A DNA stretch of 63,035 nucleotides, counting the filler, from Methanobacteriota archaeon (GTDB taxonomy: Archaea; JACRDV01), in NCBI GenBank assembly GCA_024860865.1. It is 4 parts of 4 records of this genome, joined end to end, with 100 filler letters (N's around TTAATTAATTAA, not from the genome) between each part and the next. Parts side by side here need not be neighbours in the genome. Positions count along the whole stretch, not along the records: positions 1 to 26,393 come from JACRDV010000062.1; 3 more parts are not named here. The stretch is one strand, 5' to 3'. The notes beneath the pieces were generated by a model. The model did no database searches. It was not told where the DNA came from and saw only the letters and a list, made by a program, of their open reading frames with translations. Shown here piece after piece: positions 6,218-26,723 of the stretch (the first letter of the stretch is position 1; every line of letters begins with the position of its first letter). A program made the position numbers and the translations under genes.

Positions 6218-6958
6218 TTACTTTTCGACTAATCTCATGAATTCTTTTGCATTCTTATACATATACAAATTGTTAAAAAGTAGGTAAATCTCTATAGCCT
6301 TTAAATTATGTATTTTAGTAAGAAGTTCTTGCAATTCTTTCGAAGAATATTCATGATTATAATTAATTCGCCCTTTTTCATATTTTCCATGCAATCTAAA
6401 GTATGCAATTTTAGAGTTGCTAAACCAAGTAGCATCAGATGCAAAAATATCGACGCAATGAATTAGATTAAATTTTTTACAAATATTTTTTACTACAGTT
6501 TTTTCCCACCCTCTTGGTTCCCAAGCGATTTTTATTTTATTTCTTTTGATTTTCGAAAAGAATTTTTCTGCATTTTTTATATTTTCTTCTGTTTGTTTAA
6601 AGCTAGCTGGGCACTGAATTAGGCAAATGTCTGCTCTTAAAATTTCGCAGATTTCTGTTGTTTTCTTCCAGGCGTCAGAGACTTGTTTTGTTGGTCTTAA
6701 AAATCCATACTTGTCAATATCCTCCGGTTCAAGTTTGATTCCAACTTTTTTCCAAGTTGGACTTGTTCCAGGGTGAGTTATACCTTGCCATGATTTTACG
6801 CAAAATTTAAAATCCGTTGGTGCTTGCTCTCTCCATTTTTGAGCCGTTTCAAGTCTAGGAAGTTTATAAAAGGTTGACTGGATCTCAACAACATTGAAAG
6901 TTTTAAAATATTCTTTCATATTTACTGCGAATCCACAACAACCAACATACATTCGCAT
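6218..6958 (-). CDS. DUF72 family protein
   Basis: YVGCCGF, VVEIQSTFY, QCPASF, WEPRG, YFRLHG, FNN motifs. Confidence 0.92.
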   Translation of the reverse strand: MRMYVGCCGFAVNMKEYFKTFNVVEIQSTFYKLPRLETAQKWREQAPTDFKFCVKSWQGITHPGTSPTWKKVGIKLEPEDIDKYGFLRPTKQVSDAWKKTTEICEILRADICLIQCPASFKQTEENIKNAEKFFSKIKRNKIKIAWEPRGWEKTVVKNICKKFNLIHCVDIFASDATWFSNSKIAYFRLHGKYEKGRINYNHEYSSKELQELLTKIHNLKAIEIYLLFNNLYMYKNAKEFMRLVEK

Positions 6959-7106
6959 ATTTTTATCATAACTTTTAGACTATTTATTTTTATACGTTTT
7001 TCTTTTTCTATATTCGTCTTTCATGTGGTTGGAAAATTTCCTTACTTGTCAAATCCACAAGTCATTGCATTTAACTTTAATGCTCATTGAAAATTTCTTA
7101 ATCAAC

Positions 7107-7487
7107 TTAATTTTTTGATGGTAGTTTGTATGCAACATATAAAATTAAAAGTATTGCTCCTAGTATAAGAATTAAAGAAACTTTATCCAGAATTTGTAAA
7201 ATAATAAAATTTTGAGAAGTATAAATTTGTAATACATCATATAAACCCCAACCAACAAAACCAACCACTGCAAACATGCAGGCAATTCTTATCAGCTTTA
7301 AAACATTAACAAATTGTTCTTTTACTGAAAGCCATATTTCATAGCTTAGTCCTATGATAACTGCATCGATCCACCATACAAAGCCCCAAGCTAAAGGTTC
7401 TTTTATTCTACTAAATAATAAAATCCATACCACAAAACCGATTAGTAAAAACTCAATTGTTGAGATTACAATAATTTTCCTTTTCAT
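7107..7487 (-). CDS. 4-TM membrane protein, candidate immunity protein of the distal cassette
   Basis: Starts 1 nt after the stop of the orphan tip 7489-7929; four hydrophobic segments. Confidence 0.7.
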   Translation of the reverse strand: MKRKIIVISTIEFLLIGFVVWILLFSRIKEPLAWGFVWWIDAVIIGLSYEIWLSVKEQFVNVLKLIRIACMFAVVGFVGWGLYDVLQIYTSQNFIILQILDKVSLILILGAILLILYVAYKLPSKN

Positions 7488-7488
7488 T

Positions 7489-7929
7489 TCAAATAATCCA
7501 TTTTATAGCTTCCTTAAATTTCCGTGTTGTGTTTTTTAGTTCGTTTCCGAGACGTACAAATGGAGCAGAAACCGCTTCCACATATCTAGATGTTATGGTT
7601 AAACCAAGACCTACTCCCATCATTGCTACGCCTGTTTTCACTGACCATAAACCAGCTACGGCACCTACGGGACCTAAAGCCATCATCCCAATACCTACTA
7701 CTGTGAGCGCAATACCAATTGCCATTCCCAAACTGCTACGCTGTATTATCGTTTCAGCATTTTTTTCTTGCTTCGGCAAGGCTTCATTTCCGTGCACAAC
7801 AGGTTTATTGGATTGAACGGATGCTATGAATACTGGTTTTAAAACAGTAGTTTCTGCAGATCTGACACCAGTTGTTTTTGTATTGGCATAGGTACCTGGA
7901 GCTTTTGACTGTATTTTGCCAAATTCCAA
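7489..7929 (-). CDS. Orphan alternative C-terminal tip of the 1423-aa secreted protein
   Basis: QSKAPGTYANTK...AETT...HGNEALPKQE matches the carrier, then a different Gly-rich hydrophobic hairpin; no signal peptide. Confidence 0.8.
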   Translation of the reverse strand: MEFGKIQSKAPGTYANTKTTGVRSAETTVLKPVFIASVQSNKPVVHGNEALPKQEKNAETIIQRSSLGMAIGIALTVVGIGMMALGPVGAVAGLWSVKTGVAMMGVGLGLTITSRYVEAVSAPFVRLGNELKNTTRKFKEAIKWII

Positions 7930-7960
7930 GGAGACGCCTCCTTCACTAAATCAGAAAATT

Positions 7961-8296
7961 TTAACGACCTATTTGTTTATGCTTTTTGATTACCTCAATT
8001 GATAAAAACAAACCTCCTATAGCCATAAGCAACCAAGCTAATATTTCAGAGAATATTGAAATAGTTGAATAACCAAAATAAAAAACAACATCAGCCGGAG
8101 TAAACATTAAAATACCGACAGAAAAAATCAGTAATCCTCTGAAAACATTTTTGGTTAGCCTTTTATCAAGTAGGGTGTATAAAAATATGCTAAAAAATAA
8201 AAAAATTGAAAGCAAAATGAATGAACTAAATATAAAAGCCAAGATAAGACCAACATAAGCAATTAAAAGTGAAATAATTTGAAAAAACTTTATCAT
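7961..8296 (-). CDS. 4-TM membrane protein, candidate immunity protein; homolog of the N-half of 12114-12803
   Basis: Shared LDKxLT and PxD...FGYxTxSxFxE motifs; starts 8 nt after the tip stop. Confidence 0.75.
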   Translation of the reverse strand: MIKFFQIISLLIAYVGLILAFIFSSFILLSIFLFFSIFLYTLLDKRLTKNVFRGLLIFSVGILMFTPADVVFYFGYSTISIFSEILAWLLMAIGGLFLSIEVIKKHKQIGR

Positions 8297-8304
8297 ATAA
8301 AGTT

Positions 8305-8637
8305 CTATCCTAGAATTCGCCTGAGATTAGTTAGAGTTTGATTAATACTTTTTGTAGTATTTTTAATTTCTTTCGCGGCTATGCCTAAAACTCCAGAATA
8401 TCTTAAAAGAGCACCTCCAGCAACTACTGCACCTAGTCCCGCTATTTTGGTAGTAGGTTCTGGACCTAAAATCATGGCAGCAACTCCAACAGCAATTAGA
8501 ACAGAGCCAATAACTGCTGCAACTTTTTTGTTAAATTCAAGAGCTTTAACTCCGTTTTCTTGCTTCGGCAAGGCCTCATTTCCATGCTTTTCTAGCTTTT
8601 TAGACTCGACAGAAGGCCCAATTGTTGTTTTTGTAAT
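8305..8637 (-). CDS. Orphan alternative C-terminal tip with no proper start
   Basis: ITKTTIGPSVESKKLEKHGNEALPKQENGVKALE is nearly identical to the carrier, then a divergent hydrophobic hairpin. Confidence 0.8.
   Translation of the reverse strand: MTKTTIGPSVESKKLEKHGNEALPKQENGVKALEFNKKVAAVIGSVLIAVGVAAMILGPEPTTKIAGLGAVVAGGALLRYSGVLGIAAKEIKNTTKSINQTLTNLRRILG
8535..8637. repeat. 103-bp direct repeat of 13033-13135 (5 mismatches); partial copies at about 7766-7913 and a short one near 9058-9069
   Basis: Manual alignment. Confidence 0.95.
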
Positions 8638-8639
8638 TC

Positions 8640-9080
8640 ACTTTGGCTTGCAGCAATGTTTTTATGTGTTCCTGAATCGATTAAAGAATACCGTATTAAG
8701 AAATCTCGGTTTAAGAAAATTTTGTCGCTATTATCAATAGTTTTTATAATTTTTGTAATCCTTTTATTAATCCTTTCAATAGTTAGCGAAATAGGTTTAT
8801 TGGACTGAAGGATGCTATGAATGTTGTTTTGCCTAAACAAGGTGAGGCCTATAAATTTTTGGAAATAAATAAGCAAACCAATTAAGACCCAGTGCAAAAT
8901 AAATCGAATTTTAGACTTGGACCAAAATTCTTTGTAGTTTACTAATAATGCTAAAACAGCGATGAGCGCTGCAATCCCTCCTATACTAATGCGGCTATGG
9001 CGATTCCAACAATCACAATTGCTACTTTGGCATTCCACAAAGCTTATTCCTTGCTTAAGCTTTTTAGACTGGATAGATAG
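8640..9080 (-). pseudogene. Mosaic of degenerate tip and immunity cassette fragments
   Basis: QSKKL plus frameshifted AKVAIVIVGIAIAALV; a TM fragment; 8793-8822 repeats 7801-7831 (QSNKP) with a 1-nt deletion. Confidence 0.6.
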
Positions 9081-9118
9081 TTATCACATTTAGGAGATTT
9101 TAAATTCAATGTACGTAT

Positions 9119-10606
9119 TTAGCTAATAGCTGTTGTCTTTACTTTTTCCAACTGAAAAGCACTTATGGGGTAGATATTTGAATAATGATATTTTTTTGCC
9201 CACTCCTGGGTTAAGCTCTCCTCCAATTTTTGAAAGGGATCCAACCCCATCTGTTTCCAAGTAGCCAGCATAGTCATGATTATCCCATAGATAGAGGTTC
9301 CCTTCTCATTCCTAAAAGTTCCAATTATCTTCCTCTGAACAACGTGCTCCCTGAGTGCCCTCTCTGCCCTGTTGTTAGTTGGCTCAACTCTTGGTTTAAT
9401 TACAAAGGTGAACCAGTAGTTAGCTCCGTTGCGAATCTTCTTAATTAGTTTTCTCACTTCTTCACTCTTATAAGATTTCTTTACTAAGTATTCCAACCTT
9501 CTCTTTGCACTCTTAGCCAATCTTTTCCTCTTCTCAGGAGGAGGCTTATTTTTAAGTGATTCCTTGAGATCATTGTAAAGCTTGTGCAGCGCTTTAGAAA
9601 GTTGCTTTGCTTCCTCAACATACTCTGCTAGGTAATCTGCTTCCCTCAGCAAGTGGGCCCAATCTCTCTGGATGTTTCGGGTGAATTTTGGATAAGATCT
9701 CCATCCGTCGCAAACTATAACCCCTTTGAAATCATTTCCCAAAATCTCCTCCAAAACTTTTCTGCCCCTGCTGTTTCTTATTGCGACTAATGTTTCAGAG
9801 TTTGTCACGAAACCCCAGAGCCAGTACTTCCTGCCATCAACCTTTCCACCAGTCTCATCGTTGTAAACTACTTCTGACTTTCGTATGCGTTGAACAACTT
9901 CATTGTAACTTGGCTTTAGCCAGTCGCTCACCCTTCTTGTTATATCGAATATAGTTGAGGGCGTGATGGAAAGACCATAAAACCACTTTAGCACATCCCT
10001 AATCTTGCAGTGAGGCAATCTTGCCTCGTACTTCAAAAGAGTAACATAAGCCTGCAAATTCTTGCCAAACCTTCCTTCAGGCGGGCAATCTGGATGCCTA
10101 GCAACAACATGTTTATTGCAGTTTGGGCAAATCCCGTGCCATTCCTGAAAATCTATCACCATAGGCATGGGCTTAGGGATTTCCTCCACTATGTTGTGCT
10201 TAACAGCTATTGGGTTTCCTAGCTTAGCTCCACAGCAAGGGGAAACATTCCACTCAGGCTCTTTTACAACATCAGGTTTTGGGATAGGTCTAGTGCTGCC
10301 AGGATGTCCTTTAGGCCTTCCCGGGAACCTTTTTCCATTTTTTGGACTTCCACCATTGCATTTTTTAGGATACTTTCGCTGGGAGGAAGGCACGTTTGAA
10401 TTTTCGTGAAGAGAAAGCCTGCGCTTCAGTTCTTTTATCTCAATTTTAAGTGCAACATTTTCCTCTTTCAGTGCGGCATTTTCCTCCTTCAGCGCTAGGT
10501 TCTCCTTTCTTAACAAGAGGTTCTCATTGGCTAGCTGGTCAAGCTTTTTTTCCAAATTTTTCAAAAATTCCAGAGAGTGAATTTTCAGCTCGGCTTTATT
10601 TTCCAT
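9119..10606 (-). CDS. tnpC: IS66-family transposase
   Basis: Leucine zipper, NSNVPSS, Zn finger, DETG, CDGW, WAHLLR, TNNRAERALR. Confidence 0.95.
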   Translation of the reverse strand: MENKAELKIHSLEFLKNLEKKLDQLANENLLLRKENLALKEENAALKEENVALKIEIKELKRRLSLHENSNVPSSQRKYPKKCNGGSPKNGKRFPGRPKGHPGSTRPIPKPDVVKEPEWNVSPCCGAKLGNPIAVKHNIVEEIPKPMPMVIDFQEWHGICPNCNKHVVARHPDCPPEGRFGKNLQAYVTLLKYEARLPHCKIRDVLKWFYGLSITPSTIFDITRRVSDWLKPSYNEVVQRIRKSEVVYNDETGGKVDGRKYWLWGFVTNSETLVAIRNSRGRKVLEEILGNDFKGVIVCDGWRSYPKFTRNIQRDWAHLLREADYLAEYVEEAKQLSKALHKLYNDLKESLKNKPPPEKRKRLAKSAKRRLEYLVKKSYKSEEVRKLIKKIRNGANYWFTFVIKPRVEPTNNRAERALREHVVQRKIIGTFRNEKGTSIYGIIMTMLATWKQMGLDPFQKLEESLTQEWAKKYHYSNIYPISAFQLEKVKTTAIS

Positions 10607-10618
10607 GCCTAAAAGAAT

Positions 10619-11957
10619 GACACTGTTCGGAATTACTGGGTTGTCTGACTTATAGCAGACGTACGTCAGCTCAATTACTATTTTTGAAATGGAATCTCTA
10701 ATTCTACTTTATGAAGACCTTTCAAATAGACCTTGGGCCAGGAGGCATTGAGGCATTTATTGCAGTACAGCCTGCAGAAATCAAATGCCCAAGGTGTGGC
10801 TCAACCCATGCAATAGTTCACGATTGTTACTTTCGAAAGGTTCGAGACGTAAATTTGGAGCAAAGCCAAACCATATGCCTCCTGGTGATTCTATATGAGT
10901 GTAAGGAATGTAAAAAAACTTTTGCTCCAAAAATAGATGGGATCGGACCTTACGCAAGGTACACAAATAGAGCAAAGAAATTGGCAAGAGATTCAGTTAT
11001 AAGGGACAACCTTTCAACCAGAAAAGCAGCTGAGAGATTTAAAGAAGACTTTAAATTAAAAACTTCAAACTCAACCATATATGAGTGGTCAAAGGAGAGC
11101 TACGATGAGAAAATCTTTCCATTCAGCTTTTCAGGAGTTCTATGCATAGATGAAGCGCACTCAAAAACAAATGGAAAAGAGGACAGGGTTTTAATTGCTG
11201 CAGATGGAGTTAAAGGAGATGCGATTTTATTTGAGCTGAAAGAAAATGCAAGAGAAGAGAGCATTGAAGAAGCGCTAAAAAAGCTGAAAGAAATGGGAAT
11301 TGAGCCATTTTTAATAGTCACTGATTTTCACTCAGCTTACCATGAAGCGATTGAAAATGTTTTTCCAAATGCTATCCACCAGCTCTGCCATTTCCATTTC
11401 ATGCAACTTATAAACAAGCACCTCTGGAAAGCGATAAAAAAATTCAGGGACAGGTTGAAGAAAGAAGATAGAAAAGAAATAAACAAGCATAGGTTCAAGA
11501 TCTTAAAAAACCAAGAAAATAGGGATAGTGAAGAAGAAAAAATTGTAGGAGATTTACTAAAAAAGCACAAAGGAACAATTCTAGAGAAAGGATTAGTGTT
11601 AAAAGAAAGAATTCAAGAAATTTTCAAAAGCAATAACAAAAAAGAAGCAGTGCAAAAAATAAAAGCAGTATTAAAGGAAAAGCATCCAAAGTCTCTTAGA
11701 AAAATAATCAAGCCAATAAAATATCATTGGAAAGAGCTAATTTCTTACATGGACTTTGAAAATGTTCCAAGGACAAACAATCCGGCTGAGATAGTGAAGA
11801 GAAAGTACAGGGCATTCGAAAGGGCAAGGTATGGATTCAAAAGCAAAGATGGAAAGCAAATGCTCATCAAAAATTTCCAACTTTCAATTTTGATACAAAA
11901 AACAAAAAAATGGTTAGAAGGTCTACCTACCTAAACCCAGTAATTCCGAACAGTCTC
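10619..11957 (+). mobile_element. ISL3-like insertion sequence nested in the IS66 element
   Basis: 24-bp IR GA(C/G)ACTGTTCGGAATTACTGGGTT; 8-bp duplication AAAAGAAT at 10611-10618 and 11958-11965. Confidence 0.95.
10711..11934 (+). CDS. ISL3-like DDE transposase
   Basis: CPRCG...CKEC Zn finger, CIDE, VTDFHSAY, CHFH, TNNPAE. Confidence 0.9.
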   Translation: MKTFQIDLGPGGIEAFIAVQPAEIKCPRCGSTHAIVHDCYFRKVRDVNLEQSQTICLLVILYECKECKKTFAPKIDGIGPYARYTNRAKKLARDSVIRDNLSTRKAAERFKEDFKLKTSNSTIYEWSKESYDEKIFPFSFSGVLCIDEAHSKTNGKEDRVLIAADGVKGDAILFELKENAREESIEEALKKLKEMGIEPFLIVTDFHSAYHEAIENVFPNAIHQLCHFHFMQLINKHLWKAIKKFRDRLKKEDRKEINKHRFKILKNQENRDSEEEKIVGDLLKKHKGTILEKGLVLKERIQEIFKSNNKKEAVQKIKAVLKEKHPKSLRKIIKPIKYHWKELISYMDFENVPRTNNPAEIVKRKYRAFERARYGFKSKDGKQMLIKNFQLSILIQKTKKWLEGLPT

Positions 11958-12113
11958 AAAAGAATTGTGCGTCAGACAAGCGTAAATTTTTTTATTTGAT
12001 TTTCCAAAGATTAATGGAACATTGCAGCAACGGTAATATAGTTAGAAAATTCTACTAAATCGAAACTAGCTAAATACATACAATTCAATTTTATCTTCTA
12101 CAAGCTTTAAATT

Positions 12114-12803
12114 TTAGGACTTGTAGGCTTTCCAAGTAAAAAATAATGTGAGTGCTAAAAAGATAGCGCATAACATTAATAAACTTAATAAAACAATTGC
12201 TGGCAAGAGAATACCTAGAGCGATAAAAATTCCTCCTGAACAAAAAAATATGCCAAAAGAAATACAAGCATACTTTGTATGTGGTTTCTCATAGGTGAAA
12301 TACATCCTAAACCAAAATACACCGAGTAATATAACAAAAATTCCTACGGTTCTTCCTCCACCAAATATCTCAGGGAAGATATCTCCAAAAAATAAAAGTA
12401 ACAAAAATAAAGTTATAGCGTATATAAGAAATACATATAAAAGTTTATAAAAATGTTTTTTAGTCGAATACCACCTAATCATTTCATTAGTTAATACATA
12501 CAAGCAAATGGAAAAAACTGTATATGAAGAAACTTCAAAAAATTTTGAAAGAGTTAGATAACCAAAATGATTAGAAATATCATAAGGCACTAAGAGTAAG
12601 AAAAAAAAAGACAAAATTATAAATGACCAAAACATACCAGATGTAAGCGATTTATCTAAAATACTGAGTAAAAATATTGCCAAAAAAACAAAAAGAAAAA
12701 GAAAACTTAAAGAGAATGGATATTCAAGAATAAATTCGAAAACATAGAAAATAATAATTCCAATGGTCATGAGTAATAATGGAATGAATTTAAATAACTT
12801 CAT
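12114..12803 (-). CDS. Multi-pass membrane protein (about 8 TM), candidate cognate immunity protein
   Basis: Starts 8 nt after the carrier stop; N-half homologous to 7961-8296. Confidence 0.75.
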   Translation of the reverse strand: MKLFKFIPLLLMTIGIIIFYVFEFILEYPFSLSFLFLFVFLAIFLLSILDKSLTSGMFWSFIILSFFFLLLVPYDISNHFGYLTLSKFFEVSSYTVFSICLYVLTNEMIRWYSTKKHFYKLLYVFLIYAITLFLLLLFFGDIFPEIFGGGRTVGIFVILLGVFWFRMYFTYEKPHTKYACISFGIFFCSGGIFIALGILLPAIVLLSLLMLCAIFLALTLFFTWKAYKS

Positions 12804-12811
12804 CTAAAATC

Positions 12812-15800
12812 CTAAATTCGTTCTACTTTACGTGTGCTTTCGTTGATCAATTTCGTAGCATTTCTAAATGCTTTGGATACGCCATAGAAAAGACCAGATC
12901 TTAATAGATATCTAGCTCCAGCAGAAAGTAAAGGAACTGATGCTATCTTAGCTGGACCTGGAGCAAAAGCAGCCACTGCTAAACCTATGGCAATAAGAGC
13001 AACACCGTAAATGGCGTCTTCTTTTGAGAAAGATTCAAGAGCTTTAACTCCGTTCTCTTGCTTCGGCAAGGCCTCATTTCCATGCGTAACTAGCTTTTTA
13101 GACTCAACAGAAGGCCCAATTGTTGTTTTTGTAATAGTGGTTTCTGCAGGTTTAGCTGTAGCCGATTTTGTATTAGCATAAGTACCTGTAGCTTTTGATT
13201 GTACTTGATAACCTCCTGCTGGGACACTTGCACTATATCTCCCAGCTGAATCTGTACTAACAGTATTAACCACTGCTTTTGTAACTGGGTTAATAAGATT
13301 CACAGTTGCTCCAACAATTCCTTTTCCCCTTGGATTAACAATTGTTCCTTGTATTGTTCCATTAACTACAACAGGTGGTTTAACTTTGATATTAATTGGG
13401 CCATATTGAGTATATGGAGAGGTAGCAGGGGCCGGCCACCAGCCATTGTAACGGACTAAAGACCAATAGTTCCCGTCAAACCATGCCCACTTATCCCCAC
13501 AGCACCACCAGAAAGAACTTGTTACATGGGCATATAACCTGACGTATACTGAAATGTTGTTATTGGGCATATAGAATTGCAGTTCATATGGAATTCTCCC
13601 CCACCAGCCAGGACTAGGACCGCATTGTCCTCTGGGTGGCCAGTATGGCTGAGCTCTCAAATCAGGGTCTTGAGTTAATGGAGTGTGAGGGCAATTCCAA
13701 GTTGGGTCCGGAGAGTTTAACAGGTAACCGCTTGCATTAACCAATGTATAATAGTAGTAATTTGAACCCCAAACTCCACCTTGCTCCCCTTTGATTTTAA
13801 CTAGTTCTCCTGGAGAAGCCTCAGTTTTATCCGGGTATGGGTAAACTATGTGGCCTGCAAATTGATGGGGCAATTCTTTTAGCTTTAAAACAAGGTCTGG
13901 CAGCTGTTTTTCAGCAGTTATTGGATCTCCTGAAATTGCAATTATTCCAGCCAATTTAATTCTCAAAGAAATCTCATAAATATCAACGTAATCAAAAATG
14001 TTTGTTTTGTTTGCTAGATATTTTGAATAGTTCTCCAGCTCATCTGCACTTGAAATTATTTTTGACCAGTTCTTTTCATCAACTGCTTTTATAGTTTTGT
14101 TTTTAAGCTCCTCAATGCGAGCTTGCTCCTCCTGAGTAGGAGTTAAAATAGGAAGCTCGAGCTCGTAGATGTTAATTCCCAATCTATTTTCTAAGGTTTT
14201 AAAAGCGCTGTCCACAAAAGCATCTTCGTAGCCTAGGCTTATGTTTTTCAGCTCTTTTAGAGTTGAAGTCATATTTGGTAGAGAAATTCTCCCTTGGTTT
14301 TGGATCAATTGCTGGATTGATTCAATTGTTTCATTCTGGGTTACATTATATTGCTGCATCAAAGTTATTGCTTCAGGTGGGAATCCATATTGCTGTATAT
14401 ATTCTAAAGTCGTGTTTAAAACATCCACTGGAATTGTAAAGTTAGAGACAGTTTTATTGAATTTATCCCAAGTTTCAATTAATTTTTGGTAAATTCCAAC
14501 TTGCTTGGCAGAATTTTCAGCTGCCAATTCAGATTGATTCAGCAGGATAGAAATTAACTCTGAAATTTTTGTAAAGTTCTTGTATTCAACTTCAAATGCA
14601 GCTGCAAAATCTACTGTTGCATTTGCAACTTTTTCAAAGTTGATTGTAAATTGGTTTGTTAAGTTTGTTATAGTTGTTATTTCTTCTGAGAATGTTTGAG
14701 TAGTTTCTTTCAAATTTTGAATTGTTTGGATATATGGTATGGTAATTGGAACAAGGGTTGAATAATTTGCCTTGGTTGATTTAGTTAGGCTAATATAATC
14801 AGAATTTGGATCATAAGTTTGGGATTTAATAACTCCAGTTAAAATAAATGGAACTTCTGTTCTGGCAGGCAATGAAGGAATTGTTAAGCTATCAGTTTGA
14901 GAGTTGTAGATTCCATTTCCTTGAAAGCTGACATTTATCAGTAGATCTGGGACTAAGTCAACAGCAGTTATATTTGTTAAATTAAAATCAGCTGAATTTT
15001 TGAAAGAAATGTTAAACAACAATGAATTGTCAATTGCAAATAAAATTCTGCTCGAATTATATGCTTGAGCAGTTTTGCTTGAAATCCATCCTTTTGCTGA
15101 GCAATTTTGCAAGTACAGCTCAACTGTTTTTGATATCCAATCCTCTTTCAATTCTAATGATGGAGCCTTTGAAATCGAATAGACCGCAACTTTGCTCCAG
15201 CCAGGTTCGAGCTTGCTAATATGAATTGACCCAGTTATGTTTGTAGCTGAATAGTTAGCCAGATTGACAGTTACATTATTTATTGCGTAGCTCTCTTTAT
15301 TTAAAATCCAAATTTCTCCAAAGGCTGAAAATTCAATCAATTTTCCAGTTTTATTGCATCTTGCAGCTGCCTTTTCAATAACTTTTATCTCAATGCTTGC
15401 AACAGCTAGTATTTCCTGGGCTGAAGCAAAGCCAATCTTAGGGAGCTCAAAAAATCTATGGATTGGAATTGCAGCTCCAAGCTGAGTTAATTTATTCTCA
15501 ACATAGTTAATTGCTTTAGTTAAAATCGAGATAACTAAGTTACCATAATATTTTAATTGGTTTGCAACCTCAATTGATAGCTTTCCCTCGCTCACTCTTG
15601 CATCCAAATAATCGTTTAACAAAGATGCTTCCGAAACAAACTTTTTGAGCTCAACATCTGCTTTTTTATAGTATTCATTCAGCTCATTTTTAGCCTCGCT
15701 TTCTTTGTTTGGATTTGCTGTTACCTCTGCTCCTAAAGCATTTGTATAACTCCACTCGTATTTTTCTAAAGCAAAGTATTTCCTCGCAAGCTCGAGTTGA

Positions 15801-17083
15801 GCGGCTGCTTGAGTTGAGCTGTTCTTTGAAATTGCAAGCTCAGCTTCTGAAATTTGGTTTTGAGCTCTTGTCTTGAGATAGTTTAAAAATTGAGTTAAGT
15901 TATTTTTATTTGGATTTATTCTCTGAAGAATTTGACTTTTTATTTGCGGGTCAATTGAAACTTGGTCCAAATAAGCCAGTTCAAGCTCATGGATTTTAAT
16001 TCCTGCTCTAACATAATCTGATAAATCTTTTAAAACTACAGATTGAACAAGTGCATTGAGTTCTAAATTTTCAGAAGTAGAGTAAGTTTTGTTCTGAACT
16101 AAAATTAGATAGAAATCATTTCCAACTATATCTCTTATTTTTAAGCCTGAAACTGCAGCGTCGCTATTATATGATATAGAAGAATTTAAGAAAAAATTTA
16201 AGTTTGTATTTAACGGCCATTTCAAGCCAGATGGCTTGATTTTTAGCTTAAAGATTAGCTCAGCTTTTGAGTTAGGAGCAACTGTTCCATTCCAAGTCAA
16301 TGTTTTAGTAACTGAATCATAAACAAAATTCTCTGGCTCAACTGAAATAAGCTGAGTTCCACCAACTGTGTAGTTTTGGTAATCATATAACACACTTGGC
16401 AAAGGAATTATTGCCTTAGCATTATTTAATTGAGTTGGAGAAGTGTTATTAAGGCAAATTTTAAACTCTAGAGTATTATTTGTATCAAACAAAATTTCTT
16501 TAGAGTTGAGCTCAATATTTTTCCAATCAAAAGAAATTTTAATGCTTGGGTCTTTTTTAATTGAATAGCTTGCAATTAAGTTTTGGCCCGGGATAATTTG
16601 ATCAATTTTTATTGATTCATTCTTTAAATCAGTTGAATTTAAATTTTTAAGCTGAGTTGTAATTCCATATTTTGCTGTAAAACTTTCTTTATTAATTGCG
16701 TACAAATTCCCAATTGCTGAGCTTTGAGTTAAAGCTGTAATAACAGTTTGATTAAAAGTTTCGGCTGAAAAAATTCCAGTTACATTTTCAAAAACTCTTG
16801 CTTCAACTTTAGTAGGCTTTGTTAAGATCACTTTATCCAGAGAAGAATCAATTAACTCAATAGAATTATTTGTTTTATAATCAATTTTTTCTACTACTAT
16901 TAAAACTGGAGCAGTTATGTTTGTGATTCTTAATCCAGAAATTAACTTAGTTTGATTGACCTGCGGAACTGGTGAAGTAAAAACTTGAGTTTGAGCAGAG
17001 GCAAGCTTAACACTAGGAAAGAAAGAACCCAAAAGCAAGCATGCTGCAAAAATGACGAATGCTTTTGATGCAATACTTTTCAA
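12812..17083 (-). CDS. 1423-aa secreted multidomain protein, candidate polymorphic toxin carrier
   Basis: Signal peptide, duplicated beta-rich module, helical regions, Trp/Cys-rich domain, carboxypeptidase-regulatory-like domain, variable hydrophobic tip. Confidence 0.8.
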   Translation of the reverse strand: MKSIASKAFVIFAACLLLGSFFPSVKLASAQTQVFTSPVPQVNQTKLISGLRITNITAPVLIVVEKIDYKTNNSIELIDSSLDKVILTKPTKVEARVFENVTGIFSAETFNQTVITALTQSSAIGNLYAINKESFTAKYGITTQLKNLNSTDLKNESIKIDQIIPGQNLIASYSIKKDPSIKISFDWKNIELNSKEILFDTNNTLEFKICLNNTSPTQLNNAKAIIPLPSVLYDYQNYTVGGTQLISVEPENFVYDSVTKTLTWNGTVAPNSKAELIFKLKIKPSGLKWPLNTNLNFFLNSSISYNSDAAVSGLKIRDIVGNDFYLILVQNKTYSTSENLELNALVQSVVLKDLSDYVRAGIKIHELELAYLDQVSIDPQIKSQILQRINPNKNNLTQFLNYLKTRAQNQISEAELAISKNSSTQAAAQLELARKYFALEKYEWSYTNALGAEVTANPNKESEAKNELNEYYKKADVELKKFVSEASLLNDYLDARVSEGKLSIEVANQLKYYGNLVISILTKAINYVENKLTQLGAAIPIHRFFELPKIGFASAQEILAVASIEIKVIEKAAARCNKTGKLIEFSAFGEIWILNKESYAINNVTVNLANYSATNITGSIHISKLEPGWSKVAVYSISKAPSLELKEDWISKTVELYLQNCSAKGWISSKTAQAYNSSRILFAIDNSLLFNISFKNSADFNLTNITAVDLVPDLLINVSFQGNGIYNSQTDSLTIPSLPARTEVPFILTGVIKSQTYDPNSDYISLTKSTKANYSTLVPITIPYIQTIQNLKETTQTFSEEITTITNLTNQFTINFEKVANATVDFAAAFEVEYKNFTKISELISILLNQSELAAENSAKQVGIYQKLIETWDKFNKTVSNFTIPVDVLNTTLEYIQQYGFPPEAITLMQQYNVTQNETIESIQQLIQNQGRISLPNMTSTLKELKNISLGYEDAFVDSAFKTLENRLGINIYELELPILTPTQEEQARIEELKNKTIKAVDEKNWSKIISSADELENYSKYLANKTNIFDYVDIYEISLRIKLAGIIAISGDPITAEKQLPDLVLKLKELPHQFAGHIVYPYPDKTEASPGELVKIKGEQGGVWGSNYYYYTLVNASGYLLNSPDPTWNCPHTPLTQDPDLRAQPYWPPRGQCGPSPGWWGRIPYELQFYMPNNNISVYVRLYAHVTSSFWWCCGDKWAWFDGNYWSLVRYNGWWPAPATSPYTQYGPINIKVKPPVVVNGTIQGTIVNPRGKGIVGATVNLINPVTKAVVNTVSTDSAGRYSASVPAGGYQVQSKATGTYANTKSATAKPAETTITKTTIGPSVESKKLVTHGNEALPKQENGVKALESFSKEDAIYGVALIAIGLAVAAFAPGPAKIASVPLLSAGARYLLRSGLFYGVSKAFRNATKLINESTRKVERI

Positions 17084-17279
17084 AATTTCACCATTTTCCA
17101 GACAGTTTTAAAAAAAATTTGGCACTTATTGTTAATTTTTAAATAGCGTGCAAAAAAAAAAGATAAATCTTTCGATTTGATTTTTATTCAAAAATAATAT
17201 TATAATTATTCCTAAATAAAAAACTAATTAAAGCGAGAAATGGTAGATAAAGAAGAAATAAAAATAATTGAAAACAAAC

Positions 17280-19394
17280 TCACTCAGATTTGGAACTAGT
17301 TTTTTTAATTGTACTAGATTTATTTTTATTCCAATCAGACTTAGTAATACAACTTGGTAACAAACACATTCTAAATGGGCGTTTCCCCTTTCGCCATACC
17401 TGTATCATAGGTAAGCCACATTCTTCACAAGATTTATTCAGTGGAGTTATATTTCCAACAAGAGGCAAGGGGAATCCTGTCTTGCAGTTAGGATAGTTTG
17501 AACAACCGCAAAATCTTTTACCTGTTTTCTTTGAGAATATTATTCTCAATTCTCCCGTTTTACAGTTGGGGCAATTTCCTAATCTTCTTTCTTCCCTCCT
17601 CGCTTCTATTAATCCCTCTAAAAGTTTTTTACCGATTTTACTTTCATTTTCTTTAAATTCATCTAATACATCTGTTAAAGTTTTTTTCGCCTCTTCTATA
17701 ACTTCCTCTCTTTTCTTTTTTCCATTAAAAACTTGTTCCATATCCCTTTCAAAATGTCTTGTTAATTCTTCTGACAATATTCTTGGTGAATATTCTTTCA
17801 AGGCTTTGGTAACAGCTTCACCAAGCTTTGTTACCTTTATACTTTTTCCAGAGATATATCTTCTATCGTACAGTGTTTGTAAAATCTCTGCGCGGGTCGC
17901 TTTAGTTCCAAGATTCCGTGCCTCAAGTTCTTTTACAATACTTCCTTGCGAATATCTACTTGGAGGTTCTGTTTGTTTTGATAACAAGTCTAGTTTTAAA
18001 ATTTTTAGAATCTGGCCAATTTTAAATTCTGGCAGAATCTGTTCTTCAAAAGCGAGATAAGGCGCATATATTTTCGTCCAGCCTTCCTCTATTGTTCTCT
18101 TGCCTTGTGCAATGAATTTGTTTCCATTTACATCAAGAACAACATTCATGCTCTCTCTCAAAGCTTCATCTGAAAAAGCTGATAGAGTTCTTCTTACAAT
18201 TAAATCATAAATTTTCTTCTGCTGAGGAGTTAATTTTGTTATATCAGGGACTTCCCATGTACAATAAACACAGGGGTGTGCAGGATCATCTTTTTTGCCT
18301 TGTACAGGAACCAATTTTTCTTTTGCCAACAATTCTTCTGCAAATTTTTTATATTGAGGCAATGTAGCTAAAGATTTTAAAATTTTTTCATAGTTAACAC
18401 TAGGAGGCAATTTTTGTGAGGAGGACCTAGGGTAAGAGACAAAACCGGCTTGGTACAAGCTTTCTGCAATGCTAAGGGTCTGTTTTGGCGAAAACTTGAA
18501 TTGACTGTAAGCTTCTGACTGTAGGTCTGTTGTGTTAAAAGGAACAGGAGGTGATTGTTTATATCGCCTTTTCTTGATGTCTTTTACCGTCGCATCATTA
18601 TCTTTACAATCGGTAAGGATTTTTTCTGCTTCTTCCTTTTTCCAGATTTTATCCTCTTCATAAGTTGCAACAATTTCTTTTCCATTTGCTTTGAAATGCA
18701 ATTCTAATTGCCAGAAGGGAGTTGGTTTAAATTTTCTGATTTCCAGCTCCATTTCTAAAAGCATTGCTAGAGTTGGACTTTGCACTCGACCCGAAGATAA
18801 AATGGCAAAACCTCTTTCAGCCTGGCTTTTTAAAGCTAGTGTTAATGCACGTGTGGTATTAAAGCCCCAGAAGGCATCTAGAGCATGGCGTGTTAAACCA
18901 CTTTCCAACATAGGAAACATAATATGGTTTTCCATATTTTTGTAAGATTCTACCAATTCGTCTTTGGTTAGAGTACTAAATTTCATTCTTTTCGCGTCTT
19001 TTACACCACAAATAAATCGTAAAATATTATATAGAAGAACTTCCCCTTCTGTATCAACATCTGCCGCATCAATAAATTCAGTGGCATTTTTTGCAAGTTC
19101 TTCAATATTCTTAAAATATTTTTCTGTCCAATTTGTCTCTTTTTTAGTGTAGGTGGGAATCCATTCTAAATCAAACACAGGGTAATTCCATCCTTTAGGA
19201 TTATGTTTTTTAGAAGGATTAAGGACAAACAAATGACCAACTGCAGGCACGCAAATATGTTTTTTTCCATTAACTGTGAATTCATAATAAGGTACATTAT
19301 TTTTTGTTATTACTCTAGGTTTTTTGTCGGCTATAGCTTCGGCAATCCTTCTTGCAGCATCGGGTTTTTCTGCTATGATTAGTGTATAACTCAT
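17280..19394 (-). CDS. topA: DNA topoisomerase IA
   Basis: IAEKP, DVDTEGE, SSGRVQSP, VSYPR active Tyr, LGTKATR, C-terminal Zn ribbons. Confidence 0.97.
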   Translation of the reverse strand: MSYTLIIAEKPDAARRIAEAIADKKPRVITKNNVPYYEFTVNGKKHICVPAVGHLFVLNPSKKHNPKGWNYPVFDLEWIPTYTKKETNWTEKYFKNIEELAKNATEFIDAADVDTEGEVLLYNILRFICGVKDAKRMKFSTLTKDELVESYKNMENHIMFPMLESGLTRHALDAFWGFNTTRALTLALKSQAERGFAILSSGRVQSPTLAMLLEMELEIRKFKPTPFWQLELHFKANGKEIVATYEEDKIWKKEEAEKILTDCKDNDATVKDIKKRRYKQSPPVPFNTTDLQSEAYSQFKFSPKQTLSIAESLYQAGFVSYPRSSSQKLPPSVNYEKILKSLATLPQYKKFAEELLAKEKLVPVQGKKDDPAHPCVYCTWEVPDITKLTPQQKKIYDLIVRRTLSAFSDEALRESMNVVLDVNGNKFIAQGKRTIEEGWTKIYAPYLAFEEQILPEFKIGQILKILKLDLLSKQTEPPSRYSQGSIVKELEARNLGTKATRAEILQTLYDRRYISGKSIKVTKLGEAVTKALKEYSPRILSEELTRHFERDMEQVFNGKKKREEVIEEAKKTLTDVLDEFKENESKIGKKLLEGLIEARREERRLGNCPNCKTGELRIIFSKKTGKRFCGCSNYPNCKTGFPLPLVGNITPLNKSCEECGLPMIQVWRKGKRPFRMCLLPSCITKSDWNKNKSSTIKKTSSKSE

Positions 19395-22820: not shown

Positions 22821-23810
22821 TTAAAATACTTTAATATCTTCTACAGTCGCCTTTCTACTAAAATCGCTGATTTCTATACCATCAAATAAATAGGCAAGAG
22901 GATACTTGATTTCACGAATAATTCTCAGTTTTTCTTTTGCCACACTTTTCTTCAAAAGAGACCTTGCAAGAGACAAGAAATTTTTATCCCTCTCATCAAG
23001 TTCTGCTAGAAAAGAATAATACGATATCACTTCCTCTATTGCTTTGGTAAGAGAGAAGCCAGAATCTGTCCTTATAAATCCAAATACATCATCAACAAAT
23101 TTCCTATATATGAACTTGCTCTCTATGTTTTTGAAAAATATTTTTGGATTAAAAATTTTTCTAGTTCTGTAAAAATAATATAAAACAAGTTTTCTCAGAA
23201 CTGTTTTGTCAGGATTGAGCCTTGATACGTGATACAAATCATAGATGTCTCTGCCCTTCAGCCTGTCATATAAAGCCCTGATTTTTGTTGCTGCAATTTC
23301 TTCAATGCTGTAGGTCGTTACTATGAATTTTTTATTTGTAATAGGCAACAAGAGCTCTTTTTCTACTTTGTTTAACACAGGAAATCTTTCAATAAAGGAA
23401 ATCTCCAATTTTATTGGTTGTAAAGTCCCAAAAACAGGGGTATACTTTGCATGTATTGTGGTCTGTTCATATCTTGTTTTGGTTTTTATCTTATAATTCA
23501 TATCTTGCTCTTTAAGCAGTTCTATTATTCTGTCTTTTATTTTTCTCCTTTCTTCCATTATCTTTCCTTTTTTCCCTATGGCATTAAAGTCCAAATCTAT
23601 AGAAAGCCTGGGTGTTTCTTTCAAGAAAAGTTTGTTTATCGCAGTACCGCCCTTCAGATAAAGTCTTTCTGCAAGAAATTTGTCTGCGTAAATGTCTTTC
23701 AAAACATGGATTAGTCTGAAATCCTGTTCAGCTAAGCTCAAATTATTTGTTTTTATTTCAGATGCCCATTTTTTAATTTTTGTCTCTGTTATTTCCAGCA
23801 AATTTACCAT
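22821..23810 (-). CDS. abiEii: AbiEii-type nucleotidyltransferase toxin (type IV TA)
   Basis: LKGGTA, RLSIDLDF, KIRAL..R...RDIYD. Confidence 0.92.
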   Translation of the reverse strand: MVNLLEITETKIKKWASEIKTNNLSLAEQDFRLIHVLKDIYADKFLAERLYLKGGTAINKLFLKETPRLSIDLDFNAIGKKGKIMEERRKIKDRIIELLKEQDMNYKIKTKTRYEQTTIHAKYTPVFGTLQPIKLEISFIERFPVLNKVEKELLLPITNKKFIVTTYSIEEIAATKIRALYDRLKGRDIYDLYHVSRLNPDKTVLRKLVLYYFYRTRKIFNPKIFFKNIESKFIYRKFVDDVFGFIRTDSGFSLTKAIEEVISYYSFLAELDERDKNFLSLARSLLKKSVAKEKLRIIREIKYPLAYLFDGIEISDFSRKATVEDIKVF

Positions 23811-24640
23811 CCCATTATATCCACGTTCTCAATTATGTTCCATTTTTTGGATAGCTTTCCTTTTTTATGAGCAGCAATATCTAAAAGGTATGCTTTGTTT
23901 GAAACATGTTTTTCTAACTCCTTCAACAAATTTCTATTCACTTTATATCTATTCTGATACAACTTATCCAAAATAAACCCAAACCTCTGCTTGAGAGAGA
24001 AAGTCTTTATTCTGTTTATATACAAAATTAATTTTTTAGTGTTTATTCTATCCAAGGAATTAGAAATGGTCCTTGCAACCTCACCTAATCCACCGCACAA
24101 ATCATAGCGATCCACTAAATCTATTGTGGTTTTCTCTAGATCTGACACATTTAAAAATGAGTTTGAATACTTCATTCTTTCAATTCCAAAGGACATCTTC
24201 TCTGAAATTTTTCTGAACTCTATTCTACTGTTTCCTATTTGTACGGGTCTTCTCTGCCTTACAACAGCAACAGTGACGATCATAGGAAGTTGCTCGGCTA
24301 TTCCATGCAAGTGGGCAGCACTTTGGTAACCTACATAATATTTCTCGTTTAAAATTTGCATGAGTTGGTCTATTATTAGGTACGGATCATTTACAAATTT
24401 CTCTCTATTGTAGAGCATGTCTGGTGGAATAACTATGTATGTGCCTTTCCCTGCCCTGAAGAGTATTTTCTTTTTTGTCAGGTTGTGCAAAATCTTTCTT
24501 GCATTACCTTCTCTAATCTTCTGATACTTTACTATTTGTTCTACACTTGTAACACTCCTTTCCTTGTTGATAAGAGAAAAATATACTTCCTGCTCTCTTG
24601 GGCTCATTTTAATCCTTAAATCCTTCAATTTTTCCCTCAT
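23804..24640 (-). CDS. abiEi: AbiEi-type antitoxin/regulator
   Basis: N-terminal wHTH, YYVGYQSAAHLHG, SDLEKTTID; overlaps the toxin gene. Confidence 0.9.
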   Translation of the reverse strand: MREKLKDLRIKMSPREQEVYFSLINKERSVTSVEQIVKYQKIREGNARKILHNLTKKKILFRAGKGTYIVIPPDMLYNREKFVNDPYLIIDQLMQILNEKYYVGYQSAAHLHGIAEQLPMIVTVAVVRQRRPVQIGNSRIEFRKISEKMSFGIERMKYSNSFLNVSDLEKTTIDLVDRYDLCGGLGEVARTISNSLDRINTKKLILYINRIKTFSLKQRFGFILDKLYQNRYKVNRNLLKELEKHVSNKAYLLDIAAHKKGKLSKKWNIIENVDIMGW

Positions 24641-24704
24641 ATATACACACCGTTACTATTATAGTAACGTTACGCATTTATAAAGCTTAATTTTTTAAGT
24701 TTTA

Positions 24705-24914
24705 TTATTCACTATACTCAAAATAAGAGCGAACAAAATATTTACAAAGTTTCATGAGCGCATAAATTGCATTTTCGCAAGCCACGAAGATTCTATTGGC
24801 AGCAGTGAGTATGTCGCCCTCTTCAAAGTTTCTCTTGGCAGAAGCAGGCGCACTCTTAGCACGGCTGAAATCCTCAATTATCTCATTTTTCACAGCGTCT
24901 TTCAATCCCTTCAC
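24705..24914 (-). pseudogene. Truncated HEPN-like protein
   Basis: GDILTAANRIFVACENAIYAL; coupled to the upstream MNT gene, but the C-half is missing. Confidence 0.6.
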
Positions 24915-25806
24915 CTTTCTGTATAATTTTATTAAAGAGCTTCATATAAAGACCCTCTATAATCTCCAACAGCTTTTCTGTTTTGAGTCTATTGGTGTTA
25001 CTCAAGATTTTGTATTCGCTTAATTTTTTTATTTTAGACATCGCATCTTTCCTTGACTGAGCTTCTAATCCTTCCAATTTGCATGCAAAAAATGCCAAAT
25101 CTTCAGATACTGTAGAAAGTATTTCTCTAGCAGATTCGTAATCTTTGTTTGTGTAATTTCTCCATGCTGCATTTATCCTCTCTTTCAAAAATTTCAATTC
25201 TTTTAAATCTTCATGTTGCTTCATGATTTCCCGCACATAATCTCCACCGTGAATTAATATTCCATTCATCAGCGCCTTTCTAATCAACTCATTTTCTTTA
25301 AATTCCATTTTAACGTCACTGGGCTTCAGGAAATGAATGTTTATTTTTTCGTCAGTCAGTTCAGAAATCTCCTTTTTGGCTCTGTTAATTTCTTTTTCAT
25401 CATCTGTAATTACAAGCAGGTCTATGTCGCTTTTTTCATCATAAGTTCCGGCAGCCAAAGAACCAAACAGTACGATGGCCTTTGGTTGGTTATACACAAA
25501 TTCTCTAAAAAGGGAGATAGCCGAAACCTTATTTTCAGGTAATGAAATGAATTTATGCTGATCAAAAAGTTGTCTCAGACTGAATGTTATGGGATTTAGG
25601 ATATTGAGCGATACAATCTTTGTTTTTCCAACTCTTTTTATCTTGAGTATGCCCAATGAAGAAAGTTTATTTATAGCGTCTGCCCCAGCGCCTTTCCCAA
25701 CATTGCTCCCTCTAATGAGCTCTATTTCCTTATACTCTTTCTGAGGATTTTTTAATAAAAGGGAAAGTATCCTTATAGCAGTCTTTGTTCCTATTATTTT
25801 TTCCAT
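24883..25806 (-). CDS. wHTH-minimal nucleotidyltransferase (MNT) fusion with a helical C-domain
   Basis: LFGSLAAG...SDIDLLV. Confidence 0.88.
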   Translation of the reverse strand: MEKIIGTKTAIRILSLLLKNPQKEYKEIELIRGSNVGKGAGADAINKLSSLGILKIKRVGKTKIVSLNILNPITFSLRQLFDQHKFISLPENKVSAISLFREFVYNQPKAIVLFGSLAAGTYDEKSDIDLLVITDDEKEINRAKKEISELTDEKINIHFLKPSDVKMEFKENELIRKALMNGILIHGGDYVREIMKQHEDLKELKFLKERINAAWRNYTNKDYESAREILSTVSEDLAFFACKLEGLEAQSRKDAMSKIKKLSEYKILSNTNRLKTEKLLEIIEGLYMKLFNKIIQKGEGIERRCEK

Positions 25807-26393: not shown

Positions 26394-26493
26394 NNNNNNN
26401 NNNNNNNNNNNNNNNNNNNNNNNNNNNNNNNNNNNNNTTAATTAATTAANNNNNNNNNNNNNNNNNNNNNNNNNNNNNNNNNNNNNNNNNNNN
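26394..26493. other. Artificial contig linker
   Basis: N44-TTAATTAATTAA-N44 six-frame stop spacer. Confidence 0.99.
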
Positions 26494-26715: not shown

Positions 26716-26723
26716 GGCAGAAA

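Follow-up and report, generated by a model that had tools for sequence, protein, structure and literature searches.

Orphan modules of contact-dependent inhibition (CDI) and Rhs systems, as described by Poole et al., 2011 (PMC3150448), lack a translation start, keep a conserved motif, share a variable extent of homology upstream of it, and stand in arrays that also contain insertion sequence (IS) elements. Here we combine sequence comparison, structure prediction and database searches to study a locus of similar layout in an uncultured groundwater archaeon, Methanobacteriota archaeon JACRDV01 (GCA_024860865.1). The window, by which we mean the whole stretch of DNA analyzed, is 63,035 nt long, and the locus lies in the part that comes from JACRDV010000062.1 (positions 1 to 26,393). 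The system consists of one gene for a large exported protein (the ‘carrier’) that ends in a short hydrophobic ‘tip’, and of two downstream ‘orphan’ cassettes that repeat the sequence just before the tip (the ‘linker’) and then switch to tips of their own; each of the three tips is followed directly by a gene for a multi-transmembrane (multi-TM) ‘partner’. We number the expressed tip and partner 0 and those of the orphans 1 and 2. The locus could be the archaeal equivalent, specific to one lineage, of an array for polymorphic toxins or C-terminal displacement, with the tips as toxins and the partners as immunity proteins, a reading that we place only slightly short of an even chance.

Several described systems bear on this proposal. 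CDI ionophores, in the account of Halvorsen et al., 2024 (PMC11630599), are membrane-depolarizing toxins with polymorphic membrane CdiI proteins; these immunity proteins are cognate-specific and about 30% identical within a group, and a role in self/non-self discrimination has been proposed. The glycine-zipper LXG toxins TelE/TipE (PMC10434224) and EsxX (PMC12744356) act on membranes too, TelE being another membrane-depolarizing example, and a small protein encoded nearby is reported to antagonize the toxin. In Proteus mirabilis, Cardarelli et al., 2015 (PMC4471559) report that variable regions overlapping predicted TM helices set the binding specificity of IdsD and IdsE. Archaeal polymorphic toxin systems, according to Makarova et al., 2021 (PMC8416519), had been predicted and, as of that year, not experimentally characterized. 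The same authors describe the VARTIG modules of Thermococcales, in which the first gene encodes a large protein with a signal peptide and Ig-type (CARDB/DUF11-like) domains and the genes behind it encode small proteins, most of them membrane proteins; the C-terminal region has homologues in shorter genes downstream, the C-terminus recombines, and the analogy to polymorphic toxins is drawn by the authors themselves. The C-terminal Ig domain of VARTIG is hypervariable, many members end in D[ND]NxxxG[GD] (DNNxxxGG), and their article reports no counterparts outside Thermococcales. Finally, according to a review of S-layers (PMC5744192), SlaB combines beta-sandwich domains with a coiled-coil stalk and has a TM helix at its C-terminus. 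An archaeal system with hairpin tips and orphan cassettes was not found in the literature searched, the supplements of PMC8416519 and PMC11630599 lying outside that search.

Results

Three tips of one design, each with a partner gene

The initial annotation described a 1423-residue secreted protein with a tip of about 70 residues, and this is what we find: the carrier open reading frame (ORF; 17083..12812, minus strand) begins with a signal peptide and continues for 73 residues after the sequence KALE. The orphan tips were said to share the design of the carrier tip, and all three do indeed consist of a small-residue-rich helix, a Gly-Pro turn (PGP in tip 0), a second helix and a basic tail with the sequence (K/R)N(T/A)T(K/R). 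In tip 0 the tail helix carries two N-x-S/T glycosylation sequons, and tip 2 (91 residues) has one extra hydrophobic or amphipathic stretch. AlphaFold2 models tip 0 as three helices (carrier residues 1354-1373, 1376-1395 and 1398-1422) with a predicted local distance difference test score (pLDDT) of 70-87, the rest of the model being poor. Partner genes start 8, 8 and 1 nt after the stops of tips 0, 1 and 2, and all three of these genes are intact, in line with the earlier observation of a multi-TM gene within 1-8 nt of every tip.

How the tips sit in the membrane can be approached through their sequons. Sixteen cytoplasmic proteins of the window contain 0.48 sequons per 100 residues (26 in 5428 residues), the carrier ectodomain contains 3.4 per 100 residues, and the three tip tails, at roughly 32 residues each, contain 2, 2 and 1. 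This density suggests that the tail is extracellular, in which case the two helices would form an out-in-out hairpin. Its basic charge points to the opposite orientation, which makes the out-in-out placement tentative. A tip with its tail outside has a geometry that could insert from outside into a foreign membrane.

Judged by sequence, the similarity between tips tracks the similarity between partners. Tips 0 and 1 share 54% of their residues, and partners 0 and 1 are homologues (34% identity over about 110 residues, E 6e-14); tip 2 is longer and 35% identical, and partner 2 has no BLASTP similarity to partners 0 and 1. No Pfam or NCBIfam family matched partner 0, and a protein atlas returned only unnamed clusters.

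To what extent do a tip and its partner fit each other physically? We predicted the complex of tip 0 and partner 0 from a 2-row alignment of partner 0 and a 3-row alignment of the tip (residues 42-131 of alignment A2). The interface score ipSAE was 0.74 in each of 3 runs, and the best of 3 controls scored 0.00; of 80 solved complexes 58 reach this mark, and of 110 mismatched pairs 2 do, counts that apply only roughly to predictions from shallow alignments of our own such as these. At least 91% of contacts are common to the runs, and partner 0 has a pLDDT of at least 79. In the model, carrier residues of about 1352-1400 pack against residues 5-111 and 190-223 of partner 0, and the block 5-111 is the part conserved in partner 1. 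The model supports, as a prediction only, binding of tip 0 by partner 0, with the tip placed inside the partner. Positions of partner 0 that are identical in partner 1 make up 7 of 30 predicted contacts versus 33 of 75 positions elsewhere.

Synonymous divergence points to recombination at the linker

Within the window, blastn aligns the carrier with orphan 1 over 146 nt at 84% (12990-13135 versus 8492-8637, E 2e-40) and with orphan 2 over 154 nt at 73% (13053-13206 versus 7763-7916, E 3e-27). These repeats are far beyond chance. The core of the first is a stretch of 34 codons (13135..13034 versus 8637..8536) in which 5 nt differ, 98 of 103 nt being alike; two of the five differences are synonymous and the other three fall in two adjacent codons. 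The second extends back into the last strands of the CarboxypepD_reg domain of the carrier. At the protein level the sequence HGNEALPKQE is invariant in all three copies (7794..7765 in orphan 2), and codon-by-codon divergence begins past this motif or, for orphan 1, past KALE. The idea that the 30-nt motif core is also conserved as DNA was dropped: a manual count on the alignment of the carrier with orphan 2 gives about 3 synonymous differences in 10 codons, about as many as the proportion of synonymous differences in the flanks (pS 0.46) predicts.

The signature of exchange is clearest in the comparison of carrier and orphan 1. By the Nei-Gojobori method, the number of synonymous differences per synonymous site (dS) jumps from 0.11 in the linker (34 codons) to 0.90 in the tip (73 codons), which indicates recombination at the linker. 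No homology is found 5′ of the linker, and the 103-nt island borders on unrelated sequence at one end and on near-saturated divergence at the other, exactly the pattern that a recent exchange at the linker would leave. For carrier and orphan 2, the linker has a dS of 0.72 and a nonsynonymous divergence (dN) of 0.26, and the tip has a dS of 1.63 and a dN of 1.06.

Both orphans had been described as startless repeats of the linker that switch to different tips. The repeats and the switched tips are as described, and orphan 1 is startless: its frame, open no further than 8637, meets stops directly 5′ of the linker, no start stands upstream of the motif, and the first canonical start is the conserved Leu codon inside HGNEALPKQE. 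For orphan 2 the description needs a qualification, as an in-frame TTG lies at 7929 with GGAGG 7 nt upstream. This GGAGG aligns with carrier coding sequence and so may be a relic, and orphan 2 might still be translated on its own.

Although divergence is saturated, neither the two orphan tips nor the two orphan partner genes are interrupted by a stop. Off-frame stops in the locus have a frequency of 2.6-7.3%; at about 5% stops per codon, the probability of remaining open by chance is 0.02, 0.009, 0.003 and 0.0016 for reading frames of 76, 91, 111 and 126 codons, respectively.

A stalk-like carrier outside the described toxin families

The carrier looks like a stalked, glycosylated, DUF11-like archaeal surface protein. 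This assessment follows from its Sec-type signal peptide (a hydrophobic stretch within residues 1-30), its 47 N-x-S/T sequons (versus 17.4 +/- 3.6 in shuffles), its internally duplicated beta-rich modules (about 118-330 and 586-780), a sub-threshold DUF11 match at about 685-754 (E 2.3e-4, 21.9 bits versus a Pfam cut-off of 24.6) and its long helices at about 339-534 (about 350-410 and 470-530 by AlphaFold2). The protein atlas also gave DUF11, at 0.76, a lead only. Residues 1243-1316 form the CarboxypepD_reg domain (PF13620, E 4e-9), after which come linker and tip, and besides this domain the Pfam scan gave a weak SdrD_B match. AlphaFold2 reached only a poor mean pLDDT, 42 for carrier residues 1085-1423 (single sequence) and 37 for residues 1-790 (2-row alignment), and a PDB sequence search with the carrier gave no match below E 0.99. 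The region of about residues 1100-1240 (window about 13360-13785) is rich in Trp, Cys, Tyr and Pro, contains a WWCC pair, has no family match and is modeled by AlphaFold2 with low confidence; a 30-residue match to it in a phage-like region of a Clostridiales metagenome-assembled genome (MAG) was judged irrelevant and is probably due to chance.

The carrier had been called unassignable to Rhs, CdiA, LXG or Hint-type families, and our searches agree: in Pfam, NCBIfam and PADLOC, no CDI, Rhs, LXG, Hint, sorting-signal or defence family matched the proteins of the locus (in PADLOC, 0 families for 7 of 7 proteins). The carrier shows no two-partner secretion (TPS) domain or filamentous hemagglutinin (FHA) repeats in Pfam and no VENN motif, the motif here being HGNEALPKQE. 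Neither Pfam nor NCBIfam found RHS/YD families or LXG, MafB or Hint domains in it, and the Rhs-type sequence PxxxxDPxGL is absent from the linker. As to a CdiB-like gene, no outer-membrane transporter Pfam family was matched among the 55 other ORFs of the window that were scanned. Neither the carrier C-terminus nor any partner matched an NCBIfam model of archaeosortase/exosortase-type sorting signals (PGF-CTERM and others) at a limit of E 0.1, and Exosortase_EpsH had no Pfam match among the partners. The carrier C-terminus, two helices and a tail helix, is also unlike the single TM helix and basic tail of sorting signals.

Insertion sequences and a candidate third cassette

The stretch from partner 0 to the orphans contains two IS elements (9119-11958), one ISL3-like and one of the IS66 family. 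The ISL3-like element has 25-bp terminal inverted repeats (10618-10642 and 11934-11958). One contig from run X1, a groundwater metagenome and the only sequencing run with the locus, joins 10610 to 11958 with an 8-nt ambiguity, weakly suggesting (the shorter side is only 20 nt) an empty-site allele and a recent transposition of this element. A search for clear terminal repeats of the IS66-family element found none.

Next to the IS66 gene is a scar region with two pieces of linker. At 8830..8790 stands a 42-nt copy of the orphan 2 linker (86%, E 2e-6), and a marginal linker-like piece (9077..9058; 18/20 nt, E 0.07) directly follows the IS66 gene. Between them are two hydrophobic helices preceded by a Cys-rich stretch, and the region overlaps orphan 1 out of frame. 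The 148-residue ORF is a mosaic and may be a degenerate third cassette cut by the IS66 element. Further homology of this ORF to the carrier (tblastn E 0.009) was not retained; the identity is apparently mostly that of the shared repeat read in another frame.

Relatives and metagenome contigs

A search with the whole carrier found 2 proteins among 7999 candidates scored: the carrier itself and one partial 895-residue MAG protein (P0002, labelled Euryarchaeota) with 72% identity over carrier residues 8-778. The alignment ends where the second beta module ends, which hints at a second modular breakpoint in the carrier. With residues 780-1423 as the query, the only match among 7997 candidates scored was the carrier. 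Pattern scans yielded 26 matches in genome contigs, which reduce to 1 locus (in a Clostridiales MAG) and no usable relative, 109 and 54 matches in metagenome contigs with 0 relatives, and 108 matches in viral contigs with 0 relatives.

Run X1 holds 0.91 of the sampled words of 7100-17090; 46 of its 111 aligned contigs are at least 99% alike, 30 of 30 depth bins are covered, and the depth is about 7x. Contigs of this run match orphan 2 and tip 1 and diverge to the left of 7492 and 8355; on the strength of this divergence, a related strain or locus with another downstream context is present in the sample. A joint from 8211 to 17538 in the same run was disregarded, one of its sides being 21 nt.

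Gene order and genomic setting

The array lies between a DUF72 gene (6218-6958) and a topoisomerase gene (17280-19394). Its order is carrier, partner 0, ISL3-like element, IS66-family gene, scar region, orphan 1, partner 1, orphan 2, partner 2 (Table 1). Carrier, tips, orphans, partners and the IS66 transposase gene are all on the minus strand, and the ISL3-like transposase is encoded on the plus strand. That the window is chromosomal archaeal DNA follows from its genes for CGI-121 and archaeal TRASH and AsnC-type regulators, with AbiE and PIN modules close by.

Table 1. Positions of the features of the locus, counted along the window.
Feature	Position	Strand	Basis or remark
Putative carrier promoter and ribosome-binding site	17084..17150	-	read from sequence; putative function
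TATA-like TATTTAAAAA	about 17145..17136	-	upstream of carrier
GGTGA, putative carrier ribosome-binding site	17092..17088	-	4 nt before TTG start
Carrier gene, 1423 aa	12812..17083	-	ORF call; PF13620 match
Carrier pre-tip linker, 34 codons, ITKTT to KALE, with HGNEALPKQE	13034..13135	-	homology island common to orphan 1
Tip 0, 73 aa and stop	12812..13033	-	helix, PGP turn, helix, basic tail helix
Partner 0, 229 aa, about 7 hydrophobic segments	12114..12803	-	starts 8 nt past carrier stop
ISL3-like insertion sequence	10611..11958	+	transposase 10711-11934; terminal inverted repeats
IS66-family transposase gene, 495 aa	9119..10606	-	PF03050, E 9e-43
Scar region	8592..9080	-	contains 148-aa ORF (9038..8592)
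Orphan 1: linker 8637..8536, tip 1 (76 aa), stop	8305..8637	-	blastn repeat, ORF analysis
Partner 1, 111 aa, 4 hydrophobic segments	7961..8296	-	34% identical to N-terminal half of partner 0
Orphan 2: CarboxypepD_reg end, diverged linker, tip 2 (91 aa), stop	7489..7950	-	3′ fragment of carrier paralogue
Partner 2, 126 aa, 4 hydrophobic segments	7107..7487	-	ORF call

Elsewhere in the window, AbiEii and AbiEi (22821-24640), a nucleotidyltransferase (24883-25806) and a PIN-domain gene (26712-27143) form a toxin-antitoxin or defence-type cluster within 22821-27143. FeoB is encoded by two overlapping ORFs (47716-49738, minus strand), one for the FeoB_N GTPase (49139-49738) and one for the Gate/FeoB_C membrane part (47716-49179), which is either a natural split or a frameshift. 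A secreted protein of 289 residues (55379-56248, minus strand) has a low-complexity first half rich in Gly, Tyr, Met, Pro and Trp and no Pfam match at E up to 1e-5. A second large surface protein (60859-63033, minus strand), truncated by the window end, carries repeated beta modules besides a Laminin_G_3 domain, and its sequon density is 2.7 per 100 residues.

Discussion

That the window holds a single lineage-specific array resembling polymorphic-toxin loci is real. Its anatomy, the recombination signature and the co-variation of tips and partners are established above and the complex is predicted; its function, with the topology, toxicity, delivery and switching that this entails, we infer as follows. 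The expressed gene would yield a Sec-exported, heavily N-glycosylated, stalk-like surface protein whose last 73 residues form a small-residue-rich helical hairpin in the membrane, with both ends outside. The downstream multi-TM partner would wrap the hairpin in the membrane and neutralize it in the producer, thus acting as the immunity protein. The two silent cassettes of tip and partner share only the pre-tip linker with the expressed gene; given this common linker, homologous recombination or gene conversion could move a new tip/partner pair into the expression site, or could have displaced old pairs from it, and the intact orphan partner genes may provide standing protection. From outside, the hairpin would enter the membrane of a neighbor without the cognate partner and disturb it. 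More generally, and only as a tentative proposal somewhat short of an even chance, the locus may encode archaeal contact-dependent recognition inside the membrane, that is, a toxin/immunity or kin-identity code written entirely in TM helices, in which a hairpin would be tolerated only where its cognate partner captures it, with a cassette library that recombines at a 34-codon linker and with a carrier, tip and partner of no described family.

A number of observations weigh against the toxin and immunity reading. As the S-layer review has it (PMC5744192), exported archaeal surface proteins that end in a hydrophobic segment are normally anchored in the membrane by it. The three tips form one diverged family rather than different toxins, comparison with toxin families, Pfam glycine-zipper and two-TM toxin families included, gave noise only (E at least 0.027, maximum E 10), and the locus shows neither a release protease nor a delivery device. 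On specificity, the controls of the complex prediction were unrelated proteins rather than non-cognate tips, and partner 0 varies only slightly more at its predicted contact positions than elsewhere (Fisher p 0.07, not significant). The tip dN/dS of about 0.75 is equally expected under relaxed constraint. The comparative record is thin: the only relative of the carrier is partial, the last ~110 residues of P0002 having no comparable BLASTP match to the carrier; an exhaustive phmmer search with the C-terminal 142 residues gave 2 matches among 1,835,955,588 representatives, both of them the window's own orphans; and partner 0 matched only itself among 3263 candidates scored. Likewise, no orthologue with a different tip was found, in an underpowered search whose candidates included no complete orthologue, and no junction of the carrier with an orphan tip occurs among the run X1 contigs listed, an underpowered comparison at about 7x that uses contigs only, broken inside the repeat at 13046/13056.

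What, then, would the locus be without any conflict? In the main rival explanation, which we consider unlikely but a serious contender, the carrier is a plain C-terminally anchored glycoprotein of the surface or S-layer type and the partner serves its anchoring or assembly. The orphans would, on this account, be 3′ remains of tandem paralogous operons otherwise lost to deletions and IS activity, with occasional homogenization by gene conversion. The stalk-like features of the carrier (signal peptide, sequons, beta modules, sub-threshold DUF11 match and long helices) fit, SlaB-type proteins being reviewed in PMC5744192 as a combination of beta sandwiches, coiled-coil stalk and C-terminal TM helix; the IS elements and scars show a region that is decaying or rearranging, the dN/dS of the tips fits too, and the predicted complex would suit an anchor and its partner equally well. 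Relics, however, should gain stops or frameshifts at a dS of 0.9-1.6, and here all the orphan tips and partners are intact, with the 8-nt and 1-nt coupling of tip to partner kept. HGNEALPKQE has stayed invariant in the protein of all three copies although the surrounding linker of orphan 2 has diverged in amino acid sequence, there is no evident reason for an anchor to diversify together with a dedicated partner, and no sorting-signal family of NCBIfam was matched.

A second rival keeps recognition and removes killing. The locus could be a non-lethal identity or adhesion system of the type of Proteus IdsD/IdsE, in which the variable hairpin and partner bind allele-specifically in the membrane and their match or mismatch between adjacent cells sets kin behavior such as aggregation, fusion or exchange; we rate this as improbable, more so than an anchor. 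It would have the same anatomy and co-variation and make use of the same predicted in-membrane complex, the specificity of IdsD/IdsE is reported to reside in variable regions overlapping predicted TM helices (PMC4471559), and self/non-self recognition is raised by Makarova et al., 2021 for the analogous VARTIG modules (PMC8416519). Against it, the locus has no homology to Ids proteins, Ids transfer needs a type VI secretion system (T6SS) and no transfer route is visible in the locus, and silent spare cassettes are typical of toxin arrays. Sequence alone cannot tell an identity system from a toxin system.

A misassembly in which the 103-nt near-identical linker joined pieces of different strains or loci is very improbable: among the run X1 contigs listed none spans 13046-13056 inside the repeat, and the loose ends at 7492 and 8355 are variant contexts in the sample, but the run covers the locus as given above, the repeat is shorter than usual read pairs, and a swapped join would still leave three units of linker, tip and partner on co-oriented pieces, so that the main observation survives.

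Returning to the proposed toxin and immunity array, the locus is a compact test case, with three tips, three partners and one carrier. The monoderm cell simplifies delivery, as a hairpin with both ends outside could enter the membrane of a neighbor without an injection machine. If the pairs are cognate-specific, archaea would have arrived at the logic of C-terminal displacement with an unrelated scaffold, and the tips and partners offer a minimal model of specificity between TM helices. If the tips are only anchors, the locus documents a recombination-driven turnover of anchors and partners that we did not find described in the literature searched.

Comparison with known systems

The layout had been likened to orphan arrays of CDI and Rhs loci, and the likeness stands: a conserved motif, cassettes that share only the pre-tip sequence, and IS elements are all as described in PMC3150448. 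The locus has structural features of orphan toxin/immunity arrays, namely a co-varying partner gene directly downstream of each tip and orphan cassettes without the carrier body that keep the homology before the module (orphan 2 perhaps with a TTG start). Variation of the tip after one motif is seen among the three copies of this locus, the searches having given no complete carrier orthologue. In the arrays of that account, too, a large exported carrier has a motif before its variable C-terminus and a small adjoining partner gene, and startless cassettes with varying homology before the motif lie among IS elements. Unlike those systems, the locus has in Pfam no TPS, FHA, CdiB, VENN, YD-repeat or PAAR/T6SS component; its host is a monoderm archaeon with Sec export, and its tips are membrane hairpins of 73-91 residues from one family, not diverse enzymes.

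With the CDI ionophores, as presented in PMC11630599, the locus shares membrane-spanning helical domains that vary within one family and polymorphic partner proteins. By prediction, the ionophores are bundles of five helices, and separate entry domains let them hijack inner-membrane proteins, whereas here we find a two-helix hairpin with a tail helix, no entry domain and no sequence relation. The glycine-zipper LXG toxins, as reported, likewise have a short, small-residue-rich hydrophobic segment at the C-terminus, a resemblance in composition only; unlike them, the locus has no LXG domain or type VII secretion system, and no Pfam glycine-zipper match at E up to 10.

IdsD and IdsE, as described in PMC4471559, are also an adjacently encoded pair, and their variable membrane-spanning regions determine allele-restricted binding; they differ in being bacterial and T6SS-dependent, and have no sequence relation to the locus. 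SlaB and tetrabrachion, compared here by description only (PMC5744192), resemble the carrier in being glycosylated and in having beta-sandwich domains, a stalk of helices and, at the C-terminus, an anchor in the membrane; unlike it, they are described with a single TM helix and with neither a cassette array nor a dedicated partner.

The nearest archaeal analogue is VARTIG, which, in the published description, likewise joins a large signal-peptide protein to small membrane proteins and downstream copies of the C-terminus. Its C-terminal motif is absent from all three C-termini here, and no arCOG07710-like homology was found. Unlike in VARTIG, what varies in this locus is the membrane hairpin, while the domains that precede it are conserved.

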